DNA from: an uncultured Candidatus Saccharibacteria bacterium
Lineage (GTDB): Bacteria > Patescibacteriota > Minisyncoccia > Phycocordibacterales > UBA5272
Assembly: GCA_964369115.1 (NCBI GenBank)
Contig: CAYJED010000004.1
Span: forward strand, 16,428 to 80,427
Direction: 5' to 3'
Length of the DNA stretch: 64,000 nt
Part shown: one piece after another, positions 3,743-64,000 of the stretch
Layout: each line of letters begins with the position of its first letter
How positions within the stretch are numbered: the first letter of the stretch is position 1
Made by a program: the position numbers and the translations under genes
Notes under the pieces: generated by a model
What the model was told of the DNA's origin: nothing
Seen by the model: only the letters and a program-made list of their open reading frames with translations
Databases searched by the model: none

Positions 3743-4144
3743 ATGAAAAAAATCTTTACAACACTATCAATTATTGCAGGACAGTTTGCAGTAGCTTCTG
3801 CTCAGGCAACTATCACTATTGGGCAAGGAGCTCAGCAGGGGCAGGTTAACGGAGGGGCGATCCTCGGACTCCTTGCGCTTGCTCAGACTATCATTACTCG
3901 TCTTGTTCCATTTGCGGTAGGAGTTGCGGTGCTTGCATTCTTCTGGTTCCTTATTCAGTTTATTGTAAAAGGTTCTCAGGATCCACAGAAGCAGTCAGAT
4001 GCAAAAGCTGGTATGGGATGGTCTATTCTCGCGCTTTTCCTTATGGTGTCTATCTGGGGAATCATTGGTCTTATTGGAAGTATCTTCGGAGTTAATCAGG
4101 GAGGAAGTGTTCCAATTCCTGGTGTTCCAGTTCCAGCAAACTAA
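3743..4144 (+). CDS. T4SS-pilin-like (TrbC/VirB2-like) secreted two-TM protein
   Basis: Signal peptide, then TM helix (VGVAVLAFFWFLIQFIV), KGSQDP loop, second helix (GMGWSILALFLMVSIWGIIGLIG). Same core as 4172..4786 and 4789..5043. Confidence 0.55.
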   Translation: MKKIFTTLSIIAGQFAVASAQATITIGQGAQQGQVNGGAILGLLALAQTIITRLVPFAVGVAVLAFFWFLIQFIVKGSQDPQKQSDAKAGMGWSILALFLMVSIWGIIGLIGSIFGVNQGGSVPIPGVPVPAN

Positions 4145-4171
4145 ATATCTTAACTTAGGTATATATACAAT

Positions 4172-4786
4172 ATGAAAAAAGCGCTGCTTGCATTATGTGT
4201 TGTTGCTCTCGGCGCTTTTTTTGCACATGCTCAAATCCAACTTGGAGATGTTCGTGTAAACGTTGGGCAGACCTGTTGGACTATTGATGGAAAGCGTGGA
4301 TGTCGTAATCCTTCTACTGGACAGTGGCAGCAAGAAACAGGTGGAGGAAACATGATTGGAGGAAATACAAACACTGGACAGATTGGAGGGTCAGGAAGTA
4401 TTAATGGGAATCGTTTTGGTTTTGGAATTGGAGGAGGTTCTGCTGGAGGAGGGGGTGGTCTCGCATACGGGAGTCAGGTGTGTGCTGTAGTTAATAGCTT
4501 TACCGGTCTTGTGCGTCTCTTTGCGCTTGCGCAGTGTGTTGTGACGCTTTCTGTGCCACTTCTTGTTGGTGTTGCACTCCTTGCTTTCTTTTGGTTCCTT
4601 GTTGAGTTTATCTGGAAAGGTCGTAACGATCCTACTCATTATGCAAAAGCAAAAGTCGGAATGTTTTGGTCTATTGTAGCTCTCTTTGTAATGGTGTCTA
4701 TTTGGGGAATTATTGGATTTATTGGAGGAGTGCTTGGTATAGGGCAAGGCGGAGGAATGCCAGGGTTTAGACTTCCAGGTGAATAG
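4172..4786 (+). CDS. T4SS-pilin-like secreted two-TM protein with Gly-rich ectodomain
   Basis: Signal peptide, Gly-rich stretch (GGNMIGGNTNTGQIGGSGSINGNRFGFGIGGGSAGGGGG), then the conserved core LAFFWFLVEFIWKGRNDP...GMFWSIVALFVMVSIWGIIGFIG. Confidence 0.55.
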   Translation: MKKALLALCVVALGAFFAHAQIQLGDVRVNVGQTCWTIDGKRGCRNPSTGQWQQETGGGNMIGGNTNTGQIGGSGSINGNRFGFGIGGGSAGGGGGLAYGSQVCAVVNSFTGLVRLFALAQCVVTLSVPLLVGVALLAFFWFLVEFIWKGRNDPTHYAKAKVGMFWSIVALFVMVSIWGIIGFIGGVLGIGQGGGMPGFRLPGE

Positions 4787-4788
4787 GT

Positions 4789-5043
4789 ATGACTGACGAT
4801 AGAATTCTTGAAAAGATTTTAGTTGAAGTATTTTGGCCACTCTACCAGCTTGCACTTGGTCTTGCCTTTTGTTATTTCCTTTATGGAGCTTTTATGTTTA
4901 TTGTTAACATGAATGATCCTGAAAAAAAACTAAAAGGTCAGCGTCATCTTCTTTGGGGACTTATTGGACTTTTTATTATCTTTTCGGCAGGAGCTATAGT
5001 TCGTCTCTTTAATGACATGCTTGGCGGAATGTTTGTCTTCTAG
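4789..5043 (+). CDS. T4SS-pilin-like core-only paralog (no signal peptide)
   Basis: 84 aa with TM helix, NDPEKK loop and second helix (LLWGLIGLFIIFSAG). It starts 2 nt after the previous stop. Confidence 0.45.
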   Translation: MTDDRILEKILVEVFWPLYQLALGLAFCYFLYGAFMFIVNMNDPEKKLKGQRHLLWGLIGLFIIFSAGAIVRLFNDMLGGMFVF

Positions 5044-7294: not shown

Positions 7295-7410
7295 GAGAGA
7301 TCTTGTAATTTTTGTATTTTGTGGTATAATTATAAATAGTCGGACCTGTATTTCTGGTCTGGCTTTTTTCTCCAACACACATACCTCTAGATGAGGTGAA
7401 AGGGTTTCAG

Positions 7411-8208
7411 ATGAAAAAGCTCATTGGCATCTTTGCTGCAGTACTGATGCTCGCCACGGGTGTCGCGCAGGCGGGGGTGATTCAGACGATGGACTTCAGC
7501 GGGCCGGTTGCTACCGGTTCGTCGCAAGCTCCGAACGTCTGGTACACCGATCGCTATGCGCCGGCCGGCTTCCAGGTTTCTGGCAGCCAGCTTCACCTGA
7601 CCGTCGACGAGACCGGCGCTGCAGCGAATCGCGGCGGGGCCTATTCCTCAACGTTCTACGACACCCAGGGTCGCAAGTACGACTTGCAACCCGAGGTGAC
7701 CGCGGTTTCCGTCGACATGTACATCGCGCAAGAGTTCGCGTCGGCGAACCAGCGTATCGGCGGCTTGTGGGGGACGGCTTTCACCGCTTCCGACATGATC
7801 GCTGGTGTCTACCCGATCCTCGAGTTCGCGAGTGACGGCGGCGTTGCGCGTTTCCAAGGATGGGATGCTGCAACCGGCTGGAAGAACTACGGCTTGCCGT
7901 CTGGTTTTTCCTACGACACCATGTACACGCTCGGGTTCGCTCTGAACGACGGCATGGTGGACTACCTGCTGAACGGTGAATTGCTCGGCTCGGTGAATGC
8001 CTTCGGCGGTGAATACCTCGGTAACGCGATGCTGCAAGGCATCAACAAGTTCCAGGTGGGTGATGACTTCGATTCGCGCACGATCGTGTTCGACAATCTG
8101 GTCGCATCCAGCTCGGTGCCGGAGCCCGCAAGTCTTGCGCTTGCCTCCTTGGCCTGTGCCGGCGTGTTCTTCACCCGTCGGCGTAACGATAAGAAGTCGC
8201 CGGAGTAA
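7411..8208 (+). CDS. PEP-CTERM-anchored secreted protein (high-GC, likely foreign)
   Basis: An ATG at 7411 lies 11 nt after AGGTGA. The product has a signal peptide and ends in VPEPASLALASLACAGVFFTRRR, a PEP-CTERM sorting signal (VPEP motif, TM helix, Arg cluster). GC is about 60% against about 37% in the flanks. A TTGTAA-16-TATAAT promoter lies at 7303-7330. Confidence 0.6.
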   Translation: MKKLIGIFAAVLMLATGVAQAGVIQTMDFSGPVATGSSQAPNVWYTDRYAPAGFQVSGSQLHLTVDETGAAANRGGAYSSTFYDTQGRKYDLQPEVTAVSVDMYIAQEFASANQRIGGLWGTAFTASDMIAGVYPILEFASDGGVARFQGWDAATGWKNYGLPSGFSYDTMYTLGFALNDGMVDYLLNGELLGSVNAFGGEYLGNAMLQGINKFQVGDDFDSRTIVFDNLVASSSVPEPASLALASLACAGVFFTRRRNDKKSPE

Positions 8209-8247: not shown

Positions 8248-8282
8248 AACCGACCTGAATTTAAGGTCGGTTTTCTTTTTTA
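8248..8282 (+). terminator. rho-independent terminator
   Basis: aaccgacct..aggtcggtt hairpin followed by ttcttttttat. Confidence 0.5.
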
Positions 8283-8318
8283 TAATTAGCAAATAATGTG
8301 TTAGAATAGCTCAAGCAT

Positions 8319-8389
8319 GGGCCTATAGTTTAGTGGCAGAACAACGGCCTCCAAATCCGTTGGTCGAGGTTCGATTCCTCGTGGGCCCG
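8319..8389 (+). tRNA. tRNA-Trp (anticodon CCA)
   Basis: Cloverleaf: acceptor stem GGGCCTA/TGGGCCC, anticodon loop CUCCAAA with U33 and A37 giving anticodon CCA, T-arm GAGGTTCGATTCCTC. No CCA is encoded. The rpmG then tRNA-Trp order is a common bacterial arrangement. Confidence 0.65.
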
Positions 8390-8445
8390 CAAAAAGTAAA
8401 ATCTCGTAAGATACAATCTTACGAGATTTTACTTTTTGCGGGCCC
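8383..8445. repeat. perfect 30-bp-stem palindrome overlapping the 3' end of tRNA-Trp
   Basis: gggcccgcaaaaagtaaaatctcgtaagat, loop aca, atcttacgagattttactttttgcgggccc. The left arm begins inside the tRNA acceptor 3' strand. Confidence 0.8.
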
Positions 8446-8658
8446 ACAGAAAGCCAACTGCTTGGCTTTCGTGAGGAATCGAATAGGGGTCGAAAATCTG
8501 CTTCGAGCAAAGCGAGGCAGATTTGTGACCGATTCCTTATCACCCATATACATAATAATTTATGTCACATGCGCAAAAAAAGGGGGGGTAAAACAGGGGT
8601 CACGAAGTCTTATATTTTTGTACTCAAAAATAGACTTTGTGACCGATTCCATCCAGTC

Positions 8659-9534
8659 TTACCTGATTCTCTTCACTATTCTAAATGTTCCGTCACTACC
8701 ATTTACTCGTATTGTAAATGTTTCAATAAAGTCTTGAGGAAGTCTAATAAAGTTTTCTTTTTCCATTTCTTCAATTGAAACTGGATAGCGTTTAAAACGT
8801 TCATTATAAGCAATGATTCCTTTTTCAAGCATCTGCGTTACTGCTTCTATTTTGTATCCTCCCTCTGCAATGGACTTAATAATTTCATCATCCGTATTGT
8901 TGTAAATAACTTTTATAAGCTCTCTTGAAAGCTTGTACTGTTTTTCTTTGTTATTGTTAAGATTACCTGTTGTTACAAGATTTCTTCCAACATACGTTGA
9001 ATATACTAAGTACACCCCATCTGGAGCGTTTGGACGTTCTGCTGCAATTGCTAAATAGTTTTCTGCAGGGTCGTAACTTCTAGTAAAAATTTGATATTGT
9101 GTTCCAAGATAAAAAGGAATTTGCCAACTTGTTGGAATTGCTTGTATGCCTCGCTCAGCAATCTTTGCTATTTCATCAAGTGGTTTTCTGTCTTTGTTTG
9201 TTGTTTCTCCCTGAGGGACTGTTAAGATACTAAAGAGGTAAGGGTATTCAAAGCGCGGATCTAGCTTTGTTATGTTTTTAAAATAGCCAATAAAGAAACC
9301 TTCTCTGCCGTCCCATGCAACAAAGTCTTGTATTGCTCGTACCCAGTACATGTCAGCAAGAAAATTATTAAACCCAAAGCTTACATATGGAAGAATTGTT
9401 TCTGGTAAGAGGGTGCGCTTTGCCATTTCAAGTTTAAGAGTAAAAGGTGGACTAAAAGCATCATGTTTACCTTGAAGTACTGCACTTATAATAAGAAGTG
9501 AGAGAGCTGCTCCAAACAAAAAAGAATTCTTCAT
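8659..9534 (-). CDS. secreted hypothetical protein (last gene of ABC exporter operon)
   Basis: 291 aa with an N-terminal signal/TM segment (MKNSFLFGAALSLLIISAVLQG). It starts 6 nt after the permease gene. Confidence 0.45.
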   Translation of the reverse strand: MKNSFLFGAALSLLIISAVLQGKHDAFSPPFTLKLEMAKRTLLPETILPYVSFGFNNFLADMYWVRAIQDFVAWDGREGFFIGYFKNITKLDPRFEYPYLFSILTVPQGETTNKDRKPLDEIAKIAERGIQAIPTSWQIPFYLGTQYQIFTRSYDPAENYLAIAAERPNAPDGVYLVYSTYVGRNLVTTGNLNNNKEKQYKLSRELIKVIYNNTDDEIIKSIAEGGYKIEAVTQMLEKGIIAYNERFKRYPVSIEEMEKENFIRLPQDFIETFTIRVNGSDGTFRIVKRIR

Positions 9535-34058: not shown

Positions 34059-34476
34059 GCCCTGTCCAGCTTCAAAAAAAGCCCTACTTCGGTAGGGCTT
34101 TTTTCTATACTAAATTTATCTGTTATAACAGAGAAATAACAGATAATTAGCGTAACTATTCCGACTATCTTTTTTGTTGTTATAACAACCAAAAAACAAC
34201 TATTTTTAGTAAAACTTTTTATCTCATTCTGATTGTTATAACAATCAAATAACAATTACGGAGCTGTTTACCAATTGTGATATAATACACACATAAACCT
34301 AACCCTTTCTATCACTAAAAAGGTATGGTTTTCAAAATCACGCTAAATGATAAAGATCTCCCAATGAGCTCTCACATTTAGCGTGTCGTATCTGGAAACG
34401 GATACGGGCCGGGTAACTGGCCAGAGGTTCGTTGGGAGTTTTTTGCTTTTATAAATAAAAATCACGCTAAATAATT

Positions 34477-34992
34477 ATGAGTACAAATACAAAAAAGATT
34501 TGCAAATACTGTAAATCTGAAATCATTTTGTCTGCTAAAAAATGTCCACAATGTCAGTCGGACCTTCGTAACTGGTTTGTAAGACACTGGATTATTTCAA
34601 TACTTATCGGACTTGTTGTTCTTGGAATAATAGGATCAGGATCAAACAAAAATACAACGACTGATAGTTCAAAAATACCGCAAGGATCAACTGAAAAACA
34701 ATCAGGTAAACAATATGTAGAGGTGGTGAGGTTTAGTGGAAAGGGTCAGAAAAGTTCAGAACCTTTCAAGATCAGTGGAAGTAGGTTCAAAGTTACTTAC
34801 GATTGTAAGGGTGACACCGCGACTACATATTGTGGAGCTTTTGCGTATAAAGTCGGTAGCAATATACCTCAAGGTGTTATGAATGCCACACAAGCAGTAA
34901 AGGATGAAACTGTTATATATGGATCTGGTGAATATTACATAACAGCTAACACAATGGGTGATTTTTCTATGGTTATTTACGACTATAAGTAA
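34477..34992 (+). CDS. zinc-ribbon membrane protein
   Basis: N-terminal CKYC..CPQC zinc ribbon, a TM helix, then an extracellular beta-rich domain. Confidence 0.45.
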   Translation: MSTNTKKICKYCKSEIILSAKKCPQCQSDLRNWFVRHWIISILIGLVVLGIIGSGSNKNTTTDSSKIPQGSTEKQSGKQYVEVVRFSGKGQKSSEPFKISGSRFKVTYDCKGDTATTYCGAFAYKVGSNIPQGVMNATQAVKDETVIYGSGEYYITANTMGDFSMVIYDYK

Positions 34993-35044
34993 CAAAAACA
35001 ATAACTCATTATCGTGGTAAAATACATATAAGTTATAGAACTTT

Positions 35045-35734
35045 ATGGACGGTAATGAGGACTTCAACAAGAGCACATATTGGGTACTTTCTGAACTCAA
35101 AGAAGAGAGTTTTGTGCTTTCGGATAACGATCAAGAAATAGAATTTTGTTTTGATGGTAGAAAAAGCTCACCAGATAAAAAAGTTCAAGATAGGGTGCTT
35201 CGTTTTCTCGAGAAAGAAAAAGCTGTTTCCCTTACAGCGTTTTATATAAAACCAAAGCCACTAAAAAACCTAACTAGAAATTTTGATACCTATGGGTATG
35301 GACCAATTGGATATGATGTAAAACTACTACAGCCGAGATTTGATGAACTGTACAATGAATATTCTGCTTTCAAGTCAAACAAAAATAATAAAGAGCAGTA
35401 TCAGTTCAATCTCACTATCTATCACGACAGAGGAACATTTTTTGTTGATGAGAAGAGAAAAATAGAATTCAGAAATCTTATAAGACCACTTATTATTGAG
35501 ATACTGTATAAAGCAAAAGGTAAAGATGTTGCTTCGGATAAAATAAAAACAGGGCTACAGAAAAAACTACTGAAAGATGGGCACGTTGATAATATCACAA
35601 GTATCATTGACGATATGCGCAAGAGTATAAAAAAGCACCTAAAGATAGATCCTAAAATAGTTCTACCTGATGGTGTTTCTGGTCCTGGTTACAGAATTGG
35701 AGATATCGAAATCAATATTGTAAGAGAAAAATAG
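35045..35734 (+). CDS. hypothetical protein
   Basis: 229-aa ORF; no family recognised. Confidence 0.4.
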   Translation: MDGNEDFNKSTYWVLSELKEESFVLSDNDQEIEFCFDGRKSSPDKKVQDRVLRFLEKEKAVSLTAFYIKPKPLKNLTRNFDTYGYGPIGYDVKLLQPRFDELYNEYSAFKSNKNNKEQYQFNLTIYHDRGTFFVDEKRKIEFRNLIRPLIIEILYKAKGKDVASDKIKTGLQKKLLKDGHVDNITSIIDDMRKSIKKHLKIDPKIVLPDGVSGPGYRIGDIEINIVREK

Positions 35735-35858
35735 ATAAGACCTTGTAGGTATGGTGTGAATTATCATACTGAACAGCTTACTTTGTAACGGTTTCTGAAT
35801 TCCTATAAGGTCGTAATGGGTATGTAATAGGCCCATACATATTTCCTACAATGTTTTT

Positions 35859-36011
35859 ATGACGCTCGAAGAGTTCATAAAAACAATAGGCAAAGAAGCG
35901 GATGGACTATCTCAAGAAGAGATTGAGTTTTACTATACCGTAACAGTAAAAACCTTCGATATATTTTTTGATAGATACAAGAAAGAAAAAATGTTGGTAG
36001 CACACGGATAA
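35859..36011 (+). CDS. small hypothetical protein upstream of recombinase (possible directionality or regulatory factor)
   Basis: 50-aa ORF MTLEEFIKTIGKEADGLSQEEIEFYYTVTVKTFDIFFDRYKKEKMLVAHG. It ends 31 nt before the recombinase. Confidence 0.25.
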   Translation: MTLEEFIKTIGKEADGLSQEEIEFYYTVTVKTFDIFFDRYKKEKMLVAHG

Positions 36012-36042
36012 TTCATCATAAAAATGATAAAATATAACTATA

Positions 36043-37830
36043 ATGGACCAACCAATTTATGTCATAGGGTATGCTAGAGTGAGTACCCCAAAACAAGCTC
36101 AAACTGGTGAGAGTTTGGAGGCACAAGAAAAAGCAATAAGAAAATATTGTGAAAAGAAAGGATATGCCCTCTTTCCTGATAACAAAGTTTTCAAAGAGCC
36201 ATATTCTGGGAGTAATCTTTTCAGGCCAGCATACAGAGAAATACTAGGAATTATAAAGAACAATATACATTCAAAAACAAAGGTAAAATATTTAGTATTT
36301 TGGGACTTTGATCGTCTCACGAGAGGAGGTTCGGCTGATTATGATCAGATATGGAAAGATGTTTCTGAATATGGCGTTGAATTGAGAGATACAACAGAAA
36401 TAATTCAAGAGGAAGTAAATATTATAAAGGAAGAGTTTGGTCTTGATATTGAATATGGTTGGAGCACAGCCAGACCAAGTGAAGAAGCTGAAAAAACAAA
36501 AGCAGAAGACGCAAGGAAACATAAGCGAAAAATATTGCAGACAATGATAACGGCGGAGATCCGTCTAACGATAGATGGCTATCACATAGGAAGACCTGAT
36601 TATGGTTTTCAAAACAAAAAGATTTTTGTGGGCACAAAGAAAAAATGTATCCAGGAAAGATTTGAACCCGAAGCGGTATTTGTTGAAAGAATATACAAAC
36701 TTCGTGCTGAAGGGGTGCTTTCTGATCAAGAAATTTGTAACGATGTGAATACTTTAGGATATAAAAGTAGAACTTTCAATAAATGGAACAAAGACAAGAC
36801 AAAAGTGTTGAGTGTTTCCGGGGGCAATAAACTGACCATAAAGCAGTTACAAGATATGATCAAGCGTTTTACTTACTGTGGTGTTATCTGTGAACGGTGG
36901 ACCAAATATCAGCCGATAAAAGCAAAGTATGAAGGTCTTGTGACTGTTGATCAGTGGAATACAGCAAACAGAGGTAAGGTTCAATTGGAAATAGGAGACG
37001 ACGATTATTTCACTTTGCTAAAAGATGTAAATATTCATAGTAAGAAGCGTAAAAAATATAACCCTAACTTTCCTTTCAAAGGTGTTTTGATGTGTGAAGT
37101 ATGTGGTAAGGTGATGAAGGCAAGCGCTTCAACTGGTAAAAGTGGGAAACCTTTTCCGGCTTATCATTGTGGTAGAGGTCACAAAAATAACGGTATCCCT
37201 AAAAAAGAACTTGAAGATGCTTTCAATAATTACTTGGAAAAGATAAAATTCACTGATAAGTTCTTGAATATTTTTGAAAAGACAGTTTATCTACAATTCA
37301 GAAAGAGAGAAGGAGAGCTTGCTGATTATACAAGCAAGGCAAATATCAATGTTGGAGAATTAGAAGCGCAGAAATCTGCACTTATAAAGTCATTCCCAGC
37401 AGCAACTCACCCAGAGGTTAGAAAAGGAATAGAAGATGAGATAACTAAACTGCAAGACGAGATTGCTAAAGCAAGATCACAAAGAGATAAAATGGAGATC
37501 GAAGAAGCTGACGTTGAGAATTTTATTGCTTGGTGTAAGGAAACAATGGAACACCCAACAAAAATCCTTACAGATATTAGGTCCGAGCAAGAATTAGCGA
37601 ACACTTTTTTACTTTTCTTTGAGAAGTTTCCTACCTATACAGAATTAGTTAGTGGAACACCTAAACTATCTTTAGTTTTCAAGCTTTCAGAAGAATTCAA
37701 GGTCAATCAAGACCTGTTGGTGAGCCAGTACTATCTAGGGTGGAACACCATTGAAAACGAGATAATAAAATGGAAAACAGTTTTCAATAAGTACCCGAAC
37801 CGACTTTTAGCACTAACTAATTATGAATAA
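36043..37830 (+). CDS. large serine recombinase (attP-form C-terminus)
   Basis: N-terminal resolvase domain (IGYARVSTPKQAQTGESLEAQ), a recombinase domain, a zinc ribbon (CEVCGKV...HCGRGH) and a coiled coil. The last 37 codons are encoded by the left end of copy 2. Confidence 0.85.
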   Translation: MDQPIYVIGYARVSTPKQAQTGESLEAQEKAIRKYCEKKGYALFPDNKVFKEPYSGSNLFRPAYREILGIIKNNIHSKTKVKYLVFWDFDRLTRGGSADYDQIWKDVSEYGVELRDTTEIIQEEVNIIKEEFGLDIEYGWSTARPSEEAEKTKAEDARKHKRKILQTMITAEIRLTIDGYHIGRPDYGFQNKKIFVGTKKKCIQERFEPEAVFVERIYKLRAEGVLSDQEICNDVNTLGYKSRTFNKWNKDKTKVLSVSGGNKLTIKQLQDMIKRFTYCGVICERWTKYQPIKAKYEGLVTVDQWNTANRGKVQLEIGDDDYFTLLKDVNIHSKKRKKYNPNFPFKGVLMCEVCGKVMKASASTGKSGKPFPAYHCGRGHKNNGIPKKELEDAFNNYLEKIKFTDKFLNIFEKTVYLQFRKREGELADYTSKANINVGELEAQKSALIKSFPAATHPEVRKGIEDEITKLQDEIAKARSQRDKMEIEEADVENFIAWCKETMEHPTKILTDIRSEQELANTFLLFFEKFPTYTELVSGTPKLSLVFKLSEEFKVNQDLLVSQYYLGWNTIENEIIKWKTVFNKYPNRLLALTNYE

Positions 37831-38061
37831 TATCTATATTTTACAATCTTTTCATAGAAAAACCATCAAAAAGATTTTCTAATTTATATACCGTATCTGG
37901 TATAGAACTATGCATTAGTGAGTAAAATCAAGCAAAAACCTAACCTTGACATTATTGTTTACCAATGCTATAATATAACAACTGAACTAACCCTAAATGA
38001 AAGAGGGAAAGTTAGTCGGTGTATGTTACGAAAACATACATGCTCATTACAGGAGAAAGAC

Positions 38062-38391
38062 ATGAGCCATTTCGATGAGAAGGACAACTTGTTCGGGCCT
38101 GCTCGCGCCTCCATGCGTGCACGTCTCGGCGAGTTCATGGATGTCTACATGGATGCCAAAATCAAGATCGCCCAGAAGCTGGCCGACAAGATCGCCGGCG
38201 AAAATGATGTCGAACAACTGATGGCACTCCGCGCCAAGTTGAACGATGTCATGTTCGCTGAAGATGACATCACCCAGCTGGATACGAAGATCAAGGCGCT
38301 GTTGGCGATGTTGCAGACGAACGCAACTGCCTTCATCACTCTTCGACAGCAGTGGAAGTCGTCCATCGAGGACACTCACGGCCGTCATTGA
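38062..38391 (+). CDS. hypothetical protein (identical copy of 33729..34058)
   Basis: Exact duplicate. Confidence 0.45.
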   Translation: MSHFDEKDNLFGPARASMRARLGEFMDVYMDAKIKIAQKLADKIAGENDVEQLMALRAKLNDVMFAEDDITQLDTKIKALLAMLQTNATAFITLRQQWKSSIEDTHGRH

Positions 38392-38809
38392 GCCCTGTCC
38401 AGCTTCAAAAAAAGCCCTACTTCGGTAGGGCTTTTTTCTATACTAAATTTATCTGTTATAACAGAGAAATAACAGATAATTAGCGTAACTATTCCGACTA
38501 TCTTTTTTGTTGTTATAACAACCAAAAAACAACTATTTTTAGTAAAACTTTTTATCTCATTCTGATTGTTATAACAATCAAATAACAATTACGGAGCTGT
38601 TTACCAATTGTGATATAATACACACATAAACCTAACCCTTTCTATCACTAAAAAGGTATGGTTTTCAAAATCACGCTAAATGATAAAGATCTCCCAATGA
38701 GCTCTCACATTTAGCGTGTCGTATCTGGAAACGGATACGGGCCGGGTAACTGGCCAGAGGTTCGTTGGGAGTTTTTTGCTTTTATAAATAAAAATCACGC
38801 TAAATAATT

Positions 38810-39325
38810 ATGAGTACAAATACAAAAAAGATTTGCAAATACTGTAAATCTGAAATCATTTTGTCTGCTAAAAAATGTCCACAATGTCAGTCGGACCTTC
38901 GTAACTGGTTTGTAAGACACTGGATTATTTCAATACTTATCGGACTTGTTGTTCTTGGAATAATAGGATCAGGATCAAACAAAAATACAACGACTGATAG
39001 TTCAAAAATACCGCAAGGATCAACTGAAAAACAATCAGGTAAACAATATGTAGAGGTGGTGAGGTTTAGTGGAAAGGGTCAGAAAAGTTCAGAACCTTTC
39101 AAGATCAGTGGAAGTAGGTTCAAAGTTACTTACGATTGTAAGGGTGACACCGCGACTACATATTGTGGAGCTTTTGCGTATAAAGTCGGTAGCAATATAC
39201 CTCAAGGTGTTATGAATGCCACACAAGCAGTAAAGGATGAAACTGTTATATATGGATCTGGTGAATATTACATAACAGCTAACACAATGGGTGATTTTTC
39301 TATGGTTATTTACGACTATAAGTAA
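38810..39325 (+). CDS. zinc-ribbon membrane protein (identical copy)
   Basis: Exact duplicate of 34477..34992. Confidence 0.45.
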   Translation: MSTNTKKICKYCKSEIILSAKKCPQCQSDLRNWFVRHWIISILIGLVVLGIIGSGSNKNTTTDSSKIPQGSTEKQSGKQYVEVVRFSGKGQKSSEPFKISGSRFKVTYDCKGDTATTYCGAFAYKVGSNIPQGVMNATQAVKDETVIYGSGEYYITANTMGDFSMVIYDYK

Positions 39326-39377
39326 CAAAAACAATAACTCATTATCGTGGTAAAATACATATAAGTTATAGAACTTT

Positions 39378-40067
39378 ATGGACGGTAATGAGGACTTCAA
39401 CAAGAGCACATATTGGGTACTTTCTGAACTCAAAGAAGAGAGTTTTGTGCTTTCGGATAACGATCAAGAAATAGAATTTTGTTTTGATGGTAGAAAAAGC
39501 TCACCAGATAAAAAAGTTCAAGATAGGGTGCTTCGTTTTCTCGAGAAAGAAAAAGCTGTTTCCCTTACAGCGTTTTATATAAAACCAAAGCCACTAAAAA
39601 ACCTAACTAGAAATTTTGATACCTATGGGTATGGACCAATTGGATATGATGTAAAACTACTACAGCCGAGATTTGATGAACTGTACAATGAATATTCTGC
39701 TTTCAAGTCAAACAAAAATAATAAAGAGCAGTATCAGTTCAATCTCACTATCTATCACGACAGAGGAACATTTTTTGTTGATGAGAAGAGAAAAATAGAA
39801 TTCAGAAATCTTATAAGACCACTTATTATTGAGATACTGTATAAAGCAAAAGGTAAAGATGTTGCTTCGGATAAAATAAAAACAGGGCTACAGAAAAAAC
39901 TACTGAAAGATGGGCACGTTGATAATATCACAAGTATCATTGACGATATGCGCAAGAGTATAAAAAAGCACCTAAAGATAGATCCTAAAATAGTTCTACC
40001 TGATGGTGTTTCTGGTCCTGGTTACAGAATTGGAGATATCGAAATCAATATTGTAAGAGAAAAATAG
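39378..40067 (+). CDS. hypothetical protein (identical copy)
   Basis: Exact duplicate of 35045..35734. Confidence 0.4.
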   Translation: MDGNEDFNKSTYWVLSELKEESFVLSDNDQEIEFCFDGRKSSPDKKVQDRVLRFLEKEKAVSLTAFYIKPKPLKNLTRNFDTYGYGPIGYDVKLLQPRFDELYNEYSAFKSNKNNKEQYQFNLTIYHDRGTFFVDEKRKIEFRNLIRPLIIEILYKAKGKDVASDKIKTGLQKKLLKDGHVDNITSIIDDMRKSIKKHLKIDPKIVLPDGVSGPGYRIGDIEINIVREK

Positions 40068-40375
40068 ATAAGACCTTGTAGGTATGGTGTGAATTATCAT
40101 ACTGAACAGCTTACTTTGTAACGGTTTCTGAATTCCTATAAGGTCGTAATGGGTATGTAATAGGCCCATACATATTTCCTACAATGTTTTTATGACGCTC
40201 GAAGAGTTCATAAAAACAATAGGCAAAGAAGCGGATGGACTATCTCAAGAAGAGATTGAGTTTTACTATACCGTAACAGTAAAAACCTTCGATATATTTT
40301 TTGATAGATACAAGAAAGAAAAAATGTTGGTAGCACACGGATAATTCATCATAAAAATGATAAAATATAACTATA

Positions 40376-42091
40376 ATGGACCAACCAATTTATGTCATAG
40401 GGTATGCTAGAGTGAGTACCCCAAAACAAGCTCAAACTGGTGAGAGTTTGGAGGCACAAGAAAAAGCAATAAGAAAATATTGTGAAAAGAAAGGATATGC
40501 CCTCTTTCCTGATAACAAAGTTTTCAAAGAGCCATATTCTGGGAGTAATCTTTTCAGGCCAGCATACAGAGAAATACTAGGAATTATAAAGAACAATATA
40601 CATTCAAAAACAAAGGTAAAATATTTAGTATTTTGGGACTTTGATCGTCTCACGAGAGGAGGTTCGGCTGATTATGATCAGATATGGAAAGATGTTTCTG
40701 AATATGGCGTTGAATTGAGAGATACAACAGAAATAATTCAAGAGGAAGTAAATATTATAAAGGAAGAGTTTGGTCTTGATATTGAATATGGTTGGAGCAC
40801 AGCCAGACCAAGTGAAGAAGCTGAAAAAACAAAAGCAGAAGACGCAAGGAAACATAAGCGAAAAATATTGCAGACAATGATAACGGCGGAGATCCGTCTA
40901 ACGATAGATGGCTATCACATAGGAAGACCTGATTATGGTTTTCAAAACAAAAAGATTTTTGTGGGCACAAAGAAAAAATGTATCCAGGAAAGATTTGAAC
41001 CCGAAGCGGTATTTGTTGAAAGAATATACAAACTTCGTGCTGAAGGGGTGCTTTCTGATCAAGAAATTTGTAACGATGTGAATACTTTAGGATATAAAAG
41101 TAGAACTTTCAATAAATGGAACAAAGACAAGACAAAAGTGTTGAGTGTTTCCGGGGGCAATAAACTGACCATAAAGCAGTTACAAGATATGATCAAGCGT
41201 TTTACTTACTGTGGTGTTATCTGTGAACGGTGGACCAAATATCAGCCGATAAAAGCAAAGTATGAAGGTCTTGTGACTGTTGATCAGTGGAATACAGCAA
41301 ACAGAGGTAAGGTTCAATTGGAAATAGGAGACGACGATTATTTCACTTTGCTAAAAGATGTAAATATTCATAGTAAGAAGCGTAAAAAATATAACCCTAA
41401 CTTTCCTTTCAAAGGTGTTTTGATGTGTGAAGTATGTGGTAAGGTGATGAAGGCAAGCGCTTCAACTGGTAAAAGTGGGAAACCTTTTCCGGCTTATCAT
41501 TGTGGTAGAGGTCACAAAAATAACGGTATCCCTAAAAAAGAACTTGAAGATGCTTTCAATAATTACTTGGAAAAGATAAAATTCACTGATAAGTTCTTGA
41601 ATATTTTTGAAAAGACAGTTTATCTACAATTCAGAAAGAGAGAAGGAGAGCTTGCTGATTATACAAGCAAGGCAAATATCAATGTTGGAGAATTAGAAGC
41701 GCAGAAATCTGCACTTATAAAGTCATTCCCAGCAGCAACTCACCCAGAGGTTAGAAAAGGAATAGAAGATGAGATAACTAAACTGCAAGACGAGATTGCT
41801 AAAGCAAGATCACAAAGAGATAAAATGGAGATCGAAGAAGCTGACGTTGAGAATTTTATTGCTTGGTGTAAGGAAACAATGGAACACCCAACAAAAATCC
41901 TTACAGATATTAGGTCCGAGCAAGAATTAGCGAACACTTTTTTACTTTTCTTTGAGAAGTTTCCTACCTATACAGAATTAGTTAGTGGAACACCTAAACT
42001 ATCTTTAGTTTTCAAGCTTTCAGAAGAATTCAAGGTCAATCAAGACCTGTTGGTGACCCTACGGAGAGTCGAACTCCGCTTCCAGGCATGA
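40376..42091 (+). CDS. large serine recombinase (integrated-form C-terminus, reads into tRNA-Glu antisense)
   Basis: Identical to 36043..37830 for 560 aa, then diverges at the GGTGA core into ...TLRRVELRFQA encoded by the complement of the tRNA-Glu 3' half. Confidence 0.8.
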   Translation: MDQPIYVIGYARVSTPKQAQTGESLEAQEKAIRKYCEKKGYALFPDNKVFKEPYSGSNLFRPAYREILGIIKNNIHSKTKVKYLVFWDFDRLTRGGSADYDQIWKDVSEYGVELRDTTEIIQEEVNIIKEEFGLDIEYGWSTARPSEEAEKTKAEDARKHKRKILQTMITAEIRLTIDGYHIGRPDYGFQNKKIFVGTKKKCIQERFEPEAVFVERIYKLRAEGVLSDQEICNDVNTLGYKSRTFNKWNKDKTKVLSVSGGNKLTIKQLQDMIKRFTYCGVICERWTKYQPIKAKYEGLVTVDQWNTANRGKVQLEIGDDDYFTLLKDVNIHSKKRKKYNPNFPFKGVLMCEVCGKVMKASASTGKSGKPFPAYHCGRGHKNNGIPKKELEDAFNNYLEKIKFTDKFLNIFEKTVYLQFRKREGELADYTSKANINVGELEAQKSALIKSFPAATHPEVRKGIEDEITKLQDEIAKARSQRDKMEIEEADVENFIAWCKETMEHPTKILTDIRSEQELANTFLLFFEKFPTYTELVSGTPKLSLVFKLSEEFKVNQDLLVTLRRVELRFQA

Positions 42092-45065: not shown

Positions 45066-45252
45066 TAAAGGTTTAGTTGTAGATCTTTTACTCCCCGCAT
45101 ATACAAAAATTCCGAGAAAGAATCTCGGAATTTTTGTATATGCGGTGTATGTGAGTTAAGTACCCACAGGTCTAGACCCTGTAAAGGTATTTTAGCATCC
45201 TTTTCTTACTCTAAAATATGTATGTGGGTCACTATTGTTTTTAGATAAAATA

Positions 45253-45924
45253 CTACATTCCAACAATCTGTATGACTAACATCGCTATCTTTTTCTTATC
45301 TTCATCTGACAAAGAAACCCTAGAACCTTCTAACCTAAAATTAAAATAATCATCACTAATAAGATAGGCACCGATAAACTCAGTCATATCTTCCAAGGTA
45401 TTCATACTAAGTAAACCAGTATCTCTATTTTGCCTGTGGTAAACATCCATACCCGCGAGACCGTTGCAAATACCTTTAATGTTAAGAAATGCATACAGCT
45501 CTATATATGGATGAAACTTTTCATCAATATCATTTGATCCATTTAAGAAATTAATGAGGGCTTGCTCGTATCCAGCTTGATTTTGAAAAACATGAGCAGA
45601 TTCATGAGCTAATTTAACAAGAAGTTGCTCTTTAGCGCTATCAACACCCCAACCGAAACTGTCTACATTCTCTCTACGAAATGGCATGGCACCGAGAGCG
45701 ATCTGAGACATTCCATTTTCAAGTCTTTTTGTACTTGATTCAGCACTTGCTTCATTAATACTAAGTTCTCCGTTTACCACAGAAAGAATTTTACCAACTC
45801 TTAATGAATTTCTACTTTCTACATTGAGTAATACTTGATCCATAATCGGGGAAAGTCCAGAGAATAATCTTCTTGGTGCAGATTCTTGTATTGGATTATT
45901 GCTTTTTGATTCCGGTGTTTTCAT
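45253..45924 (-). CDS. HExxH-motif hypothetical protein (putative metallopeptidase-like)
   Basis: LAHESAHVF motif. Flanked by about 70-bp imperfect direct repeats. Confidence 0.4.
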   Translation of the reverse strand: MKTPESKSNNPIQESAPRRLFSGLSPIMDQVLLNVESRNSLRVGKILSVVNGELSINEASAESSTKRLENGMSQIALGAMPFRRENVDSFGWGVDSAKEQLLVKLAHESAHVFQNQAGYEQALINFLNGSNDIDEKFHPYIELYAFLNIKGICNGLAGMDVYHRQNRDTGLLSMNTLEDMTEFIGAYLISDDYFNFRLEGSRVSLSDEDKKKIAMLVIQIVGM

Positions 45925-62079: not shown

Positions 62080-62490
62080 TTACATGTCGCGGTTTTTCTT
62101 TTCAGGGTTGGCAAGATTTTTCTTCCAACCGCCAAACATCTTGCCAACTTCTTCGAGTTTCAATGCAACGCTCTCACAGTGAGCGTTTGAAATAAGCTTG
62201 CCCTCCCATGCAACAGAAACAAGAAACTTTAGTGTGTCTAACACCAAAATACACTCATTAATTTTCTCCTCTTTCTTATCTTTTTCTATAAAATAGGCAA
62301 TGTATGACAATTCAAGCAGATCGAGAAACTTGTTCTCAATTCGTGAGCCAATTGTATAGCGTGCCCCTTTAGCAATATGCGGAACAATATTAACCCAAAT
62401 CAAATAGCCCTCTTTAATCCTGTTGAGAATCGAGGCGTTGTTGGTGTGCGAAAGTCGGGGGGGGGGGGGGAGATTAGTAGCTCGGTTCAT
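62080..62490 (-). CDS. avd: Avd-like accessory protein (copy 2)
   Basis: Identical to copy 1. The G14 tract lies at 62457..62470. Confidence 0.6.
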   Translation of the reverse strand: MNRATNLPPPPRLSHTNNASILNRIKEGYLIWVNIVPHIAKGARYTIGSRIENKFLDLLELSYIAYFIEKDKKEEKINECILVLDTLKFLVSVAWEGKLISNAHCESVALKLEEVGKMFGGWKKNLANPEKKNRDM

Positions 62491-63480
62491 ATCTACAATA
62501 ATATCATTTCTGTCGAAAACTTACTCGTCGCATGGCGAGAATTCCTCCATGGAAAACGGAGCCGTAAAGATGTAGCCCAATTTTCAGTGCATCTGACCGA
62601 TAATATACTTGCCCTTCATCGTGAACTCGTTGATAAGACCTACCATCACGGTCCATACAAAGCTTTTCGTATCAACGATCCTAAGCCGCGCGATATTCAT
62701 AAGGCGAGTGTTCGTGATCGGTTACTTCACCATGCTATTTATAGAATTTTGTATCCATATTTTGATCCTAAATTTATTTTTGATTCATACTCATGTCGTC
62801 GTGGCAAAGGCACGCACCGTGCGCTTGATAGATTCCGAGACTATGCGCGCAAAGTTTCTAAAAATCATATCCAAACGGTGTGGGTGTTAAAGTGCGATAT
62901 CAGAAAGTTTTTTGCAAACATTGATCACAGAATTTTGGAAGATATTTTGAAACTCAGGATGGGAGATGAAGATGTGATACGGCTTTTCAGAGAAATAGTC
63001 GGCAGTTTTAATACCAAAGACAAACACGGTGTCGGTCTCCCTCTTGGCAATTTGACGAGCCAGCTACTAGTAAACATTTATATGAATGAGTTTGATCACT
63101 TTCTCAAGCGAGATTTGAAAATTAAATACTGCGTCAGATATGCGGATGATTTTGTTATCCTGCATAAAGACAAAAAATATTTAGAAAGTGTCTTGCCAAA
63201 AATCTCTGCATTTTTAGAGACAAGGCTCAAGCTTTCTCTGCATCCCGATAAGGTATTTATAAAAACATTCGCTTCGTGCGTGGACTTTCTTGGTTGGGTG
63301 CATTTTCCGCATCATCGCGTACCGAGGACATCAACAAAAAAGAGAATGTTCAGAAATTTAAATCAAAACCCAAAAAAGGAATCACTAAGTTCCTATGCTG
63401 GACTTCTGAGTCACGGCGATACACATGAATTACGAGAGACGATATTTGAGCGGTATTCAGACAATAAGGAGAAAAACTGA
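62377..63480 (+). CDS. DGR-type reverse transcriptase (5' boundary uncertain; ORF overlaps avd on the opposite strand)
   Basis: RT motifs: RINDPKPRDIHKASVRDRLLHHAI (1-2), LKCDIRKFFANIDH (3), GLPLGNLTSQLLVNIYM (4, the DGR-type SQ variant), YADD (5), LHPDK (6), FLGW (7). Confidence 0.8.
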   Translation: MRNNINPNQIALFNPVENRGVVGVRKSGGGGEISSSVHIYNNIISVENLLVAWREFLHGKRSRKDVAQFSVHLTDNILALHRELVDKTYHHGPYKAFRINDPKPRDIHKASVRDRLLHHAIYRILYPYFDPKFIFDSYSCRRGKGTHRALDRFRDYARKVSKNHIQTVWVLKCDIRKFFANIDHRILEDILKLRMGDEDVIRLFREIVGSFNTKDKHGVGLPLGNLTSQLLVNIYMNEFDHFLKRDLKIKYCVRYADDFVILHKDKKYLESVLPKISAFLETRLKLSLHPDKVFIKTFASCVDFLGWVHFPHHRVPRTSTKKRMFRNLNQNPKKESLSSYAGLLSHGDTHELRETIFERYSDNKEKN

Positions 63481-63554: not shown

Positions 63555-64000
63555 ATGAAAACAACAGCACCAATTGGCTACGAAATGACCCAAGTAGTCC
63601 AAACGCCAATAAAAGCACGATATTGCCTCTATGCCCGTAAATCGACGGAATCAGAAGAAAGACAAGTCCTTTCAATAGATTCACAGATCAAGGAAATGTT
63701 ACAGCTCGCAGAAAGAGAAGGCCTTGAGATTGTGGCAATGAAAAGAGAGTCCCACTCTGCCAAAGAGACAGGGCAACGACCCGTGTTCAATGAAATAATC
63801 GAAGAGCTCAGACAAGAGAAATTCAATGCGATATTAACTTGGGCACCTGATCGAATTAGCAGAAATGCCGGTGACTTGGGAAAGATAGTGGATCTCATGG
63901 ATGCAGGTAAGCTACTTCAAATACGGACATTTGGGCAAACATTTTCTAATAATCCCAATGAGAAGTTCCTCTTAATGATCCTCGGATCGCAGGCAAAGCT
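63555..64000 (+). CDS. serine recombinase (resolvase-domain N-terminus), 3' partial at window end
   Basis: MKTTAPIGY...YCLYARKSTESEERQVLSIDSQ...LTWAPDRISRN shows the catalytic Ser motif and the start of the resolvase fold. The ORF runs off the window. Confidence 0.7.
   Translation, partial: MKTTAPIGYEMTQVVQTPIKARYCLYARKSTESEERQVLSIDSQIKEMLQLAEREGLEIVAMKRESHSAKETGQRPVFNEIIEELRQEKFNAILTWAPDRISRNAGDLGKIVDLMDAGKLLQIRTFGQTFSNNPNEKFLLMILGSQAK

Follow-up and report, generated by a model that had tools for sequence, protein, structure and literature searches.

The region 3' of the tRNA-Trp gene is described here for a 64,000-nucleotide stretch of contig CAYJED010000004.1 (the window, meaning that whole stretch), in which the tRNA leads into a long palindrome, further hairpins and a pair of short repeats. 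Judged by comparison with related loci (designated by L numbers), this palindrome may well be the joint between tRNA-Trp and a tRNA-matched, tRNA-like non-coding RNA module that sits behind a terminator typical of the genome, an interpretation that we regard as an even call. The palindrome is retained 3' of tRNA-Trp in every relative in which that flank is visible, and it is therefore a conserved structured element and not the recombination scar that a preliminary description of this DNA had supposed. The same description had named a structured RNA element as another possibility; a conserved structured element is indeed present in the relatives, and that it acts as RNA is what we infer. The features of the locus in the window are as follows.

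8279-8307, + strand: sigma-70-like promoter TTTATA-17-TAGAAT with TG, just 5' of tRNA-Trp (consensus match only)
8319-8390, + strand: tRNA-Trp gene, CCA anticodon, 3' CCA not encoded (ARAGORN; Rfam RF00005, 64 bits)
8370-8390, + strand: M1, final 21 nt of tRNA-Trp, the segment mirrored 3' (inverted-repeat search, sequence reading)
8381-8447, both strands: perfect palindrome with 32-nt arms and loop ACA at 8413-8415 (inverted-repeat search)
8391-8437, both strands: T, the inner A-tract/12-bp stem/U-tract hairpin, bidirectional-terminator-like (sequence reading, covariation)
8438-8547, + strand: complete element unit 1 (covariance model, 105.8 bits, E = 3e-23, the sequence being in the training set)
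8438-8447, + strand: M2a, GCGGGCCCAC, reverse complement of the tRNA acceptor 3' strand (inverted-repeat search) and 5' strand of helix P1 in relatives
8449-8470, + strand: H1, 9-bp hairpin with loop CTGC (covariation in 11 species)
8473-8483, + strand: M2b, GAGGAATCGAA, reverse complement of the T-stem 3' strand plus T loop, and 5' strand of helix P2
8488-8530, + strand: Hb, hairpin with G.U pairs on the + strand and apical CGAGC..GCGAG (inverted repeat, fold asymmetry)
8531-8538, + strand: P2 3' strand, GATTCCTT, eroded remnant of a direct copy of the tRNA 3' end (M3)
8522-8536, + strand: copy 1 of a 15-nt direct repeat, made of the Hb 3' foot plus the P2 3' strand (repeat search)
8575-8588, both strands: A7G7 homopolymer tract between units (comparison of samples)
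8585-8650, + strand: second-unit remnant, hairpin B (8598-8644) plus CGATTCC (partial covariance-model match, E = 0.08)
8636-8650, + strand: copy 2 of the 15-nt direct repeat, the 3' strand of the second-unit remnant (repeat search)

M1 comprises the 3' part of the T loop, the 3' strand of the T stem, the 3' strand of the acceptor stem and the discriminator G. Its first part, TTCGATTCCTC (8370-8380, T loop plus T-stem 3' strand), was found by the inverted-repeat search to have its reverse complement at 8473-8483, and the left arm of the palindrome begins within tRNA-Trp and covers the final 10 nt of the gene. Between both mirrored parts lie 25 nt (8448-8472) that hold the H1 hairpin, gaaagccaa/ttggctttc. 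Taken together, the complementary parts of 10 and 11 nt give an exact mirror of the final 21 nt of the tRNA, which a hairpin interrupts at the junction of acceptor and T stem. Thus, the outer 10 bp of the palindrome arise because the next element opens by mirroring exactly the final 20 nt of the tRNA, with H1 in between. The arms (8381-8412 and 8416-8447) are 100% complementary around a 3-nt loop, so that the perfect hairpin described earlier on the tRNA-Trp 3' end is real, and extends slightly beyond the 8383-8445 first given for it. Its excessive length for a terminator, also remarked on at that time, applies to the outer 10 bp only, which are special, and not to the inner 22 bp, which match the usual terminators of this genome.

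T begins 1 nt past the tRNA discriminator and is a perfect hairpin, with a U-rich tract after the stem on both strands (CAAAAAGTAAAA ... TTTTACTTTTTG), as is likewise the case in the relatives. The consensus terminator scan did not list T; since the T-tract lies within the extended stem, outside the rule of the scan, this miss is uninformative. The window contains 19 perfect hairpins with arms of at least 11 nt versus 0.1 expected in shuffles, and nearly all of them are A-tract/stem/T-tract palindromes; a hairpin with 23-nt arms lies between convergent genes at 45095-45145. Perfect bidirectional terminators are the rule in this genome, and the inner 22 bp of the palindrome would be, by its sequence, an ordinary bidirectional intrinsic terminator of that kind. 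A minus-strand gene converging on a shared terminator, which would explain a perfect palindrome, was considered and rejected, given that the interior of the element folds worse on the minus strand in 13/13 species.

Downstream of T, the hairpins gaaagccaa..ttggctttc (8449-8470) and aaatctgc..gcagattt (8488-8530) of the preliminary description were both confirmed. The arms of the latter, Hb, span 18 nt and are 83% complementary, with an invariant G.U pair and 97% of positions paired. Hb is followed by CGATTCC, and hairpin B, which is homologous to the hairpin of unit 2 in L033, is followed by CGATTCC again. In the window the direct copy of the tRNA 3' end is reduced to CGATTCC(TT), with 7-9 nt left, and the 3' strand of P1 has decayed in the window species (CGATTCC-TTATCACCC). 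The pair of direct repeats noted at the outset is real and exact over 15 nt (TTTGTGACCGATTCC, at 8522-8536 and 8636-8650), while the longer version agrees at only 16/18 positions and needs a 1-nt shift; two homologous hairpin 3' feet, each with its remnant of a tRNA-derived strand, account for it. The isolated hairpins and the short repeat are therefore what is left by the loss of the P1 3' strand and the reduction of the second unit to hairpin B. The whole region, 8319-8660, folds far more stably than dinucleotide shuffles on both strands, with z = -14.6 (+ strand) and z = -13.0 (- strand). Among assemblies only the homopolymer at 8575-8588 varies (A7G7, A8G7, A8G8), a variation in length that is either real or sequencing error.

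Related loci were collected by synteny, through homologues of the downstream 291-aa protein and their contigs, and by a motif scan for a mirrored tRNA end with variable insert, which contributed 8 GTDB species and 2 metagenome contigs (L021-L029). By the names on the related records, the organism belongs to the Parcubacteria/Paceibacterota (candidate phyla radiation), and the architecture is kept in about 15 species of this group. Five loci were not selected by motif, namely L018, L020, L033 and L035, which came from synteny, and L031, and the element is present in all five. The layout after tRNA-Trp is common to every relative with that 3' flank visible: the tRNA 3' end GTGGGCCCG(C); then T, an A-rich/stem/loop/stem/T-rich hairpin of species-specific sequence; then CGGGCCCAC-AG-(hairpin H1)-CGT-GAGGAATCGAA; then one or two hairpins with a conserved foot (GGGGTCG...GTGACC or GGCCTGCGAG...CTTGTAGG), in which the CGAGC..GCGAG apical motif recurs; and finally, in about half of the species, the tRNA 3' end again as a direct copy, GATTCCTCGTGGGCCCG. 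This downstream copy is exact in L031, matches at no fewer than 14/17 positions in L018, L020, L023, L026, L027 and L028, and reaches at least 15/17 in L020, L023, L026, L027, L028 and L031, where the three-way junction described below is closed. CCA follows it in L023, L026, L027 and L031.

Units stand in tandem in L018 and L033, and partial extra units are present in L020 and L027. An ordinary + strand terminator follows the last unit in L023, L026, L031 and L033. The motif GTCGTTTAGGTTCTGGTGCTCGATGAGC(T/G)TAGAAA was observed in L023 and L026 between the downstream tRNA-end copy and this final terminator. A separate conserved non-coding module, CAAAAATAAGGAG...GCCGCAGTAGTCTGCGGCCGAGCAAAA plus a terminator, lies in the gap between tRNA-Trp and the unit in L020 and L016 and after the unit in L028, and its position before the unit in the former and after it in the latter suggests shuffling at the locus.

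In the relatives, the palindrome that separates the tRNA 3' end from its mirror has perfect or nearly perfect arms, with the exceptions of L020 and L028. Arms of 26-32 nt are perfect in 10 species, and their sequences differ between species; the lengths of the arms of T are given below.

Window: 32 nt perfect
L021: 31 nt perfect
L027, L033 and L035: 30 nt perfect
L029: 29 nt perfect
L022 and L024: at least 27 nt perfect (left flank truncated)
L018 and L025: 26 nt perfect
L023: 30-nt arms with one mismatch, the longest perfect run being 16

About 270 nt of non-coding DNA are thus kept beside tRNA-Trp, in genomes whose flanking proteins are only 50-63% identical between species, and within it the junction and loop sequences AATAGGGGTCG, CTGC (the H1 loop) and CGAGC..GCGAG are conserved. 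A covariance model built from 6 species recovered units in all the remaining Trp loci, on the tRNA strand, with E-values from 2e-13 to 5e-3, and gave no comparable full-length match elsewhere in 197 kb.

The conserved helices carry paired changes. Over the outer 24 nt of both arms of T in 11 species, L020 and L028 included, 94.7% of cells are paired; double-sided changes occur in 16/24 pairs, none of 500 shuffles reaches the observed covariation, and slid registers fall short of it. In H1, 7/9 pairs covary and 96% are paired across 11 species. The interior of the element, that is P2 and its hairpins, folds better on the tRNA strand in 13/13 species (-579 versus -436 kcal/mol, summed), and it holds 40 G.U pairs on the tRNA strand versus 13 on the other, one such pair being invariant among six simple-type sequences. 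An accessory hairpin present in L018, L020, L022 (together with L030, which is nearly identical to L022) and L033 has GNRA loops on the tRNA strand (GGGA, GTGA, GAGA) and a stem that covaries.

Where the downstream copy is intact (L020, L023, L026, L027, L028, L031), the sequence folds into a three-way junction. Its helix P1, GGGCCCAC paired with GUGGGCCC and followed by the discriminator G, equals the acceptor stem of tRNA-Trp, and P2, GAGGAAUCG paired with CGAUUCCUC, equals the T stem extended through the would-be T loop. H1 emerges at the place of tRNA nucleotides 8-48, where the D and anticodon arms would be, and the conserved hairpins sit at the tip of P2, in the place of the T loop. The element's 5' strand thus complements both the tRNA 3' end and the 3' strand of the element itself, and one cause underlies both. 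An acceptor-like helix with discriminator, coaxial with a T-stem-like helix, is found in these six relatives and not in the window, where the P1 3' strand is eroded. The likeness to tRNA is confined to the acceptor and T-stem helices: the element fails the cloverleaf test, with no ARAGORN or Rfam tRNA match on 8438-8650 or its homologues, and a search of Rfam 15 at permissive thresholds with the window and 13 related loci returned only sub-threshold matches to miRNA hairpins.

On the basis of this anatomy, conservation, covariation, strand asymmetry and tRNA matching, a scheme for transcription, processing and function can be proposed. An RNA made from the tRNA strand is indicated by the GNRA loops and the invariant G.U pair, by the strand asymmetry, and by the + strand terminators after the last unit. 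No convincing promoter was found between T and the element, either in the consensus scan or in the T loops of relatives that were inspected, so that expression would rely on read-through of the terminator or on processing of a co-transcript. A promoter inside the palindrome was rejected as well, since hexamers in the loop and U-tract resemble -10 boxes in some species inconsistently and the scan found none. The tRNA-like ends of such an RNA could make it a substrate or decoy for RNase P, RNase Z and the CCA-adding enzyme. Alternatively, the antisense 5' segment might pair with the tRNA 3' end in read-through transcripts, and a switch or competition between real and decoy 3' ends is conceivable. 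The window element would be a partly eroded example, with P1 lacking its 3' strand and the second unit represented by hairpin B only.

Several observations weigh against an RNA module of this kind, the missing promoter among them. G.U pairs are nearly absent from the outer helices (4/262 cells in T, 0/99 in H1), and this fits a constraint at the DNA level or on both strands better than one on an RNA made from one strand. The excess of G.U pairs on the + strand could come in part from strand-biased C-to-T mutation, given the positive GC skew of the window, and would equally fit the folding of single-stranded DNA, while hairpin-templated correction could produce covariation without selection. 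In the minimum-energy fold of a full co-transcript, moreover, the real tRNA is opened up by pairing with the 5' segment, and in relatives with an intact 3' copy the tRNA 5' strand also pairs with the downstream copy. In about half of the species, the window included, erosion has affected the 3' copy needed to close P1, and P1 is therefore not essential everywhere. Much of the conservation of the mirrored 5' segment is imposed by the search pattern, and, as set out next, the interiors found at different tRNAs resemble each other only marginally.

The same layout was found after two further tRNAs. In L025 (7160-7500, - strand) a tRNA-Tyr precedes, in this order, a T-like hairpin, a mirror (reverse complement) of its own 3' end and further hairpins; a hairpin flanked by the same linkers (G-hairpin-CGT) interrupts the mirror, and the element ends with a direct copy of the 3' end of that tRNA. 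In L036 (4940-5381, - strand) a tRNA-Ser(GGA) has the same layout without H1, both copies being matched to their own tRNA. The layout is absent after tRNA-Glu in the window, tRNA-Leu in L025 and another tRNA-Ser in L023. Alignment scores between the Trp, Tyr and Ser interiors barely exceed the best of 300 shuffles, so that common descent of these interiors is at most suggested by their sequences. It is a tentative proposal, and one that we hold to be doubtful, that Parcubacteria carry a new "tRNA-mirror" class, a modular unit after a tRNA (Trp, Tyr, Ser) that contains an exact antisense and an exact copy of its 3'-terminal ~20 nt; the part of this proposal by which the unit folds as a tRNA-like three-way junction is put forward just as guardedly. 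If true, the unit could act in cis as an RNA switch or decoy whose antisense selects either the real or the decoy end and thereby governs tRNA maturation, or, alternatively, it could be a new kind of miniature mobile cassette that targets tRNA 3' ends via folded single strands.

The preliminary description had also considered the remains of an att site, and here the genomic islands of the group are informative. In L012, L030 and L031/L038 an island end joins the left edge of the palindrome, in place of tRNA-Trp, which occupies that position in the window and most relatives. L012 belongs to the window species (neighbouring protein 99% identical) and L030 to the species of L022. The islands of L030 and L038 carry an N6/N4 DNA methylase and a large serine recombinase, that of L030 also terminase-like genes, and L012 shows only a ~125-nt island end. 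The junction lies immediately before CCGC or GCCCGC, that is, at the final bases of the tRNA gene plus one, and tRNA-Trp was not found in the ~10-13 kb of readable flank beyond the palindrome in L030 and L038. By eye, the island ends of L012 and L030 are ~93% identical whereas their palindromes differ completely, and the palindrome therefore belongs to the host. Thus, the junction of tRNA and palindrome is a real insertion site in three relatives, and farther downstream several relatives do keep the tRNA 3' end as a full direct copy; the hairpins, in contrast, are present in island-free genomes and are no scar or remnant of an island.

The conserved ~125-nt island end, named 'Y', starts at the GCGG of a perfect palindrome and has the core TTAGAAC...AAGACCTGTAAGG. 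Its copies are located as follows.

Window, about 45142-45266, after the palindrome at 45095-45145
L012, 7140-7273
L030, 12925-13062, - strand
L038, 11186-11330
L017, 8612-8750

'Y' holds two direct repeats, which change together from version to version (CTCGTG / CTCGAG / ATGTG.G), and a tandem AAAAGTGAC x2 is found in the 'Y' of four relatives and not in the window copy. A reading of 'Y' as a tRNA or known RNA was rejected after negative ARAGORN and Rfam searches, and its repeats look more like DNA binding sites. In the window, 'Y' opens an island of about 45.1-64 kb that is related to those abutting the tRNA-Trp palindrome in L030 and L038. Among its defence and mobile genes are those for a ParB-methylase and a second N6/N4 methylase, for type III restriction (Res and Mod) and for a reverse transcriptase (62377-63480); at 63555-63998 the window ends within a large serine recombinase, of which it includes a fragment. 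A 3369-bp tandem direct duplication occupies ~55.9-62.6 kb, each copy with a 613-aa ORF, a 136-aa ORF and a perfect hairpin (55923, 59292), and, lying beside the reverse transcriptase, it may be a diversity-generating retroelement with two targets.

Among the alternatives to the tRNA-like RNA module, one places the function at the level of DNA, as a cassette-like or att-like recombination unit at a tRNA integration hot spot; we consider it unlikely. The direct copies would then serve as att-type repeats; the inverted copy and the hairpins, folded as single-stranded DNA in the manner of integron attC sites, would be recognised by a recombinase acting in trans, and recombination between tRNA-derived copies would add, remove and reshuffle units. 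Such a unit is suggested by the direct copy, which spans from T loop to discriminator and is of full length in 6 relatives, a T-loop class with a matching segment being established among tRNA att sites. The tandem units of L018 and L033, the partial extras of L020 and L027, and the other module standing before the unit in L020/L016 and after it in L028 agree with reshuffling, and in L027 the downstream copy shares the CCTTG variant of its own tRNA. Matched versions at three different tRNAs, the serine-recombinase island exactly at the tRNA/palindrome junction (L012, L030, L031/L038) and the strict Watson-Crick pairing of T and H1 count in the same direction, as does the apex GCGAAGC of several species, which we take to be the sequence of a well-known, very stable DNA mini-hairpin. 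However, no recombinase gene lies in or beside the units of genomes without the island, and no polymorphism of presence and absence was seen within the species, L001-L015 being identical save for the island junction of L012. Serine recombinases are not known to create long direct repeats. Recent spread would not give T and H1 sequences that are species-specific and carry compensatory changes, and the pattern is absent from 2.9 million viral contigs; a viral contig scan for the island end likewise gave no match. Between the tRNA-end repeats there is neither an integrase nor mobile cargo, but only 100-300 nt of non-coding hairpins.

No better placed is the possibility that a genuine terminator has been accompanied by neutral by-products of fold-back synthesis (template switching), an account that we also judge improbable. 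The terminator hairpin would have led to an inverted copy of the tRNA 3' end, and the next hairpin to a copy back in direct orientation, after which continued hairpin-templated correction would keep the arms perfect and the tRNA-derived zig-zag would have no function of its own. This would explain, with no selection, why the element matches whichever tRNA is adjacent (Trp, Tyr, Ser), as well as the perfect arms, the double-sided changes and the absence of G.U intermediates; it also suits the abundance of perfect palindromes genome-wide, the frequent erosion of the outer copies and the marginal homology of interiors across tRNA types. Candidate-phyla (Patescibacteria) genomes are small and gene-dense, yet ~270 nt of non-coding DNA are retained at the same place despite 50-63% identity of the flanking proteins. 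A neutral by-product would likewise leave aside the conserved junction and loop sequences (AATAGGGGTCG, CTGC, CGAGC..GCGAG), the invariant G.U pair and the strand asymmetry in 13/13 species, and no such extension occurs in these data at tRNA-Glu, tRNA-Leu, one tRNA-Ser or other terminators.

That the palindrome is an artefact of assembly or amplification (a fold-back chimera) is a negligible prospect: palindromes do break de Bruijn graphs, and many Logan contigs end in these hairpins, but JGI and NCBI contigs of separate samples (L006, L010, L011, L014) run through the palindrome with one and the same sequence, and homologous palindromes that differ in sequence are known from over 10 further species. 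Across the JGI, NCBI and Logan assemblies of many samples (L001-L015, more than 10 of them independent) the sequence is the same, and it is therefore no assembly artefact. Logan contigs were reportedly built with k = 31, and their break within these hairpins is what arms of at least 31 nt would lead one to expect. The exact palindrome arms were not matched in the scanned JGI metagenome contigs, and JGI samples reached otherwise, which the scanned collection evidently lacks, do contain the sequence.

Two further candidates were rejected. One is an intron in the T arm of the tRNA, or a group I intron; no matches to the catalytic core were found, the unit is too small, excision of what lies between both copies would yield the same tRNA, and published Patescibacteria tRNA introns sit in the anticodon loop (PMC13011429). 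For a retroelement primer-binding site, no adjacent reverse transcriptase is present, the nearest such gene being 54 kb away.

Upstream of tRNA-Trp lie the gene of L33 (7081-7242) and an ORF of higher GC (7396-8208, about 0.49 versus 0.38), which Pfam identifies as a PEP-CTERM protein gene. PEP-CTERM is an unusual sorting signal in the phylum concerned. A PEP-CTERM-type gene likewise lies 5' of tRNA-Trp in the distant relative L035 (a faint Pfam match), and the terminal part of the L020 flank, read by eye, resembles a PEP-CTERM C-terminal tail. The ORF is therefore no recent insertion tied to the hairpins, and the link once drawn between these and a neighbouring high-GC insertion falls away. 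Downstream, on the minus strand, ORF calls and Pfam place the 291-aa protein, an ABC-2 permease and an ABC ATPase, in agreement with the ABC exporter operon described earlier; neither secE nor nusG is among the tRNA-adjacent ORFs scanned by Pfam, a scan that included no search aimed at either gene. Elsewhere in the window, three tandem small genes at 3743-5043, 5' of glycyl-tRNA synthetase, encode T4SS-pilin-like membrane proteins, an assignment that comes from PF18895 in matching JGI loci. A 4333-bp direct duplication at 34075-42000 carries in each copy a perfect terminator hairpin and a LOOT RNA, as listed here.

34296-34422: LOOT RNA (Rfam RF03000, 84.5 bits)
38629-38755: LOOT RNA (Rfam RF03000, 84.5 bits)

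To our knowledge, almost nothing is known about the non-coding RNAs and cis elements of candidate-phyla (Patescibacteria) genomes. If the element is an RNA, a new class of tRNA-derived RNAs, linked to the processing or quality control of tRNA, would be at hand; if it works as DNA, the recombination modules that target tRNAs would gain a new type. The tRNA-Trp 3' end is further identified as an insertion point of serine-recombinase islands in this group, and long perfect palindromes that serve as normal terminators matter for annotation and assembly, because k-mer assemblers break there. Literature searches returned no description of the element, and an antisense and a copy of a neighbouring tRNA 3' end that frame conserved hairpins would be an architecture for which no published description was found.

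Among known systems, bidirectional Rho-independent terminators share the A-tract/stem/loop/stem/U-tract of 8391-8437 directly after a gene 3' end, whereas here the helix is lengthened by 10 (effectively 21) bp from the tRNA 3' end and its mirror, and structured units follow on the same strand. The primer-binding site of retroviruses and LTR retroelements likewise is an exact complement of ~18-20 nt to a specific tRNA 3' end, but the complement here is split by a hairpin, has an inconsistent CCA and lies beside the tRNA gene itself. Quasi-palindrome template-switch mutations would yield perfect arms and inverted copies of flanks; they are, however, a mutational process and no functional class, and they leave the conserved unpaired motifs unexplained. 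Integron attC sites resemble the element, by analogy only, in their imperfect palindromes with conserved inverse ends, variable centre and an asymmetric extra-helical feature, in a strand that folds better than the other, and in tandem arrays beside a fixed primary site. The ends of the element are, in contrast, tRNA-derived and 20 nt long, and its units stand back to back without cassette ORFs; no integron integrase was detected among the 16 window ORFs scanned with Pfam (7 adjacent, 9 in the 45-64 kb island) or among genes of the related loci. With att sites in tRNA genes it shares, in several relatives, a direct copy of the 3' end from the T loop, 100-300 nt downstream, and in three genomes the same spot is the insertion point of a serine-recombinase island. 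Here, however, every case has an inverted copy, compensatory changes accompany a conserved interior, the repeats enclose neither integrase nor cargo, and the window keeps 7-9 nt of the direct copy. The element fails the defining tests for a tRNA, for an att site with cargo and for attC. The t-elements of plant mitochondria (PMC1920247) and mascRNA/MALAT1 (RF01684) offer a further comparison, since they too have an acceptor-like helix stacked on a T-stem-like helix and lie beside or within a longer transcript; elements of this kind are cut by RNase P and RNase Z. Cleavage of the present element is a prediction and it has no Rfam match, and it differs from both in that a T loop and D arm are absent, long hairpins replace the T loop, and the helix is an exact copy of that of the neighbouring tRNA.

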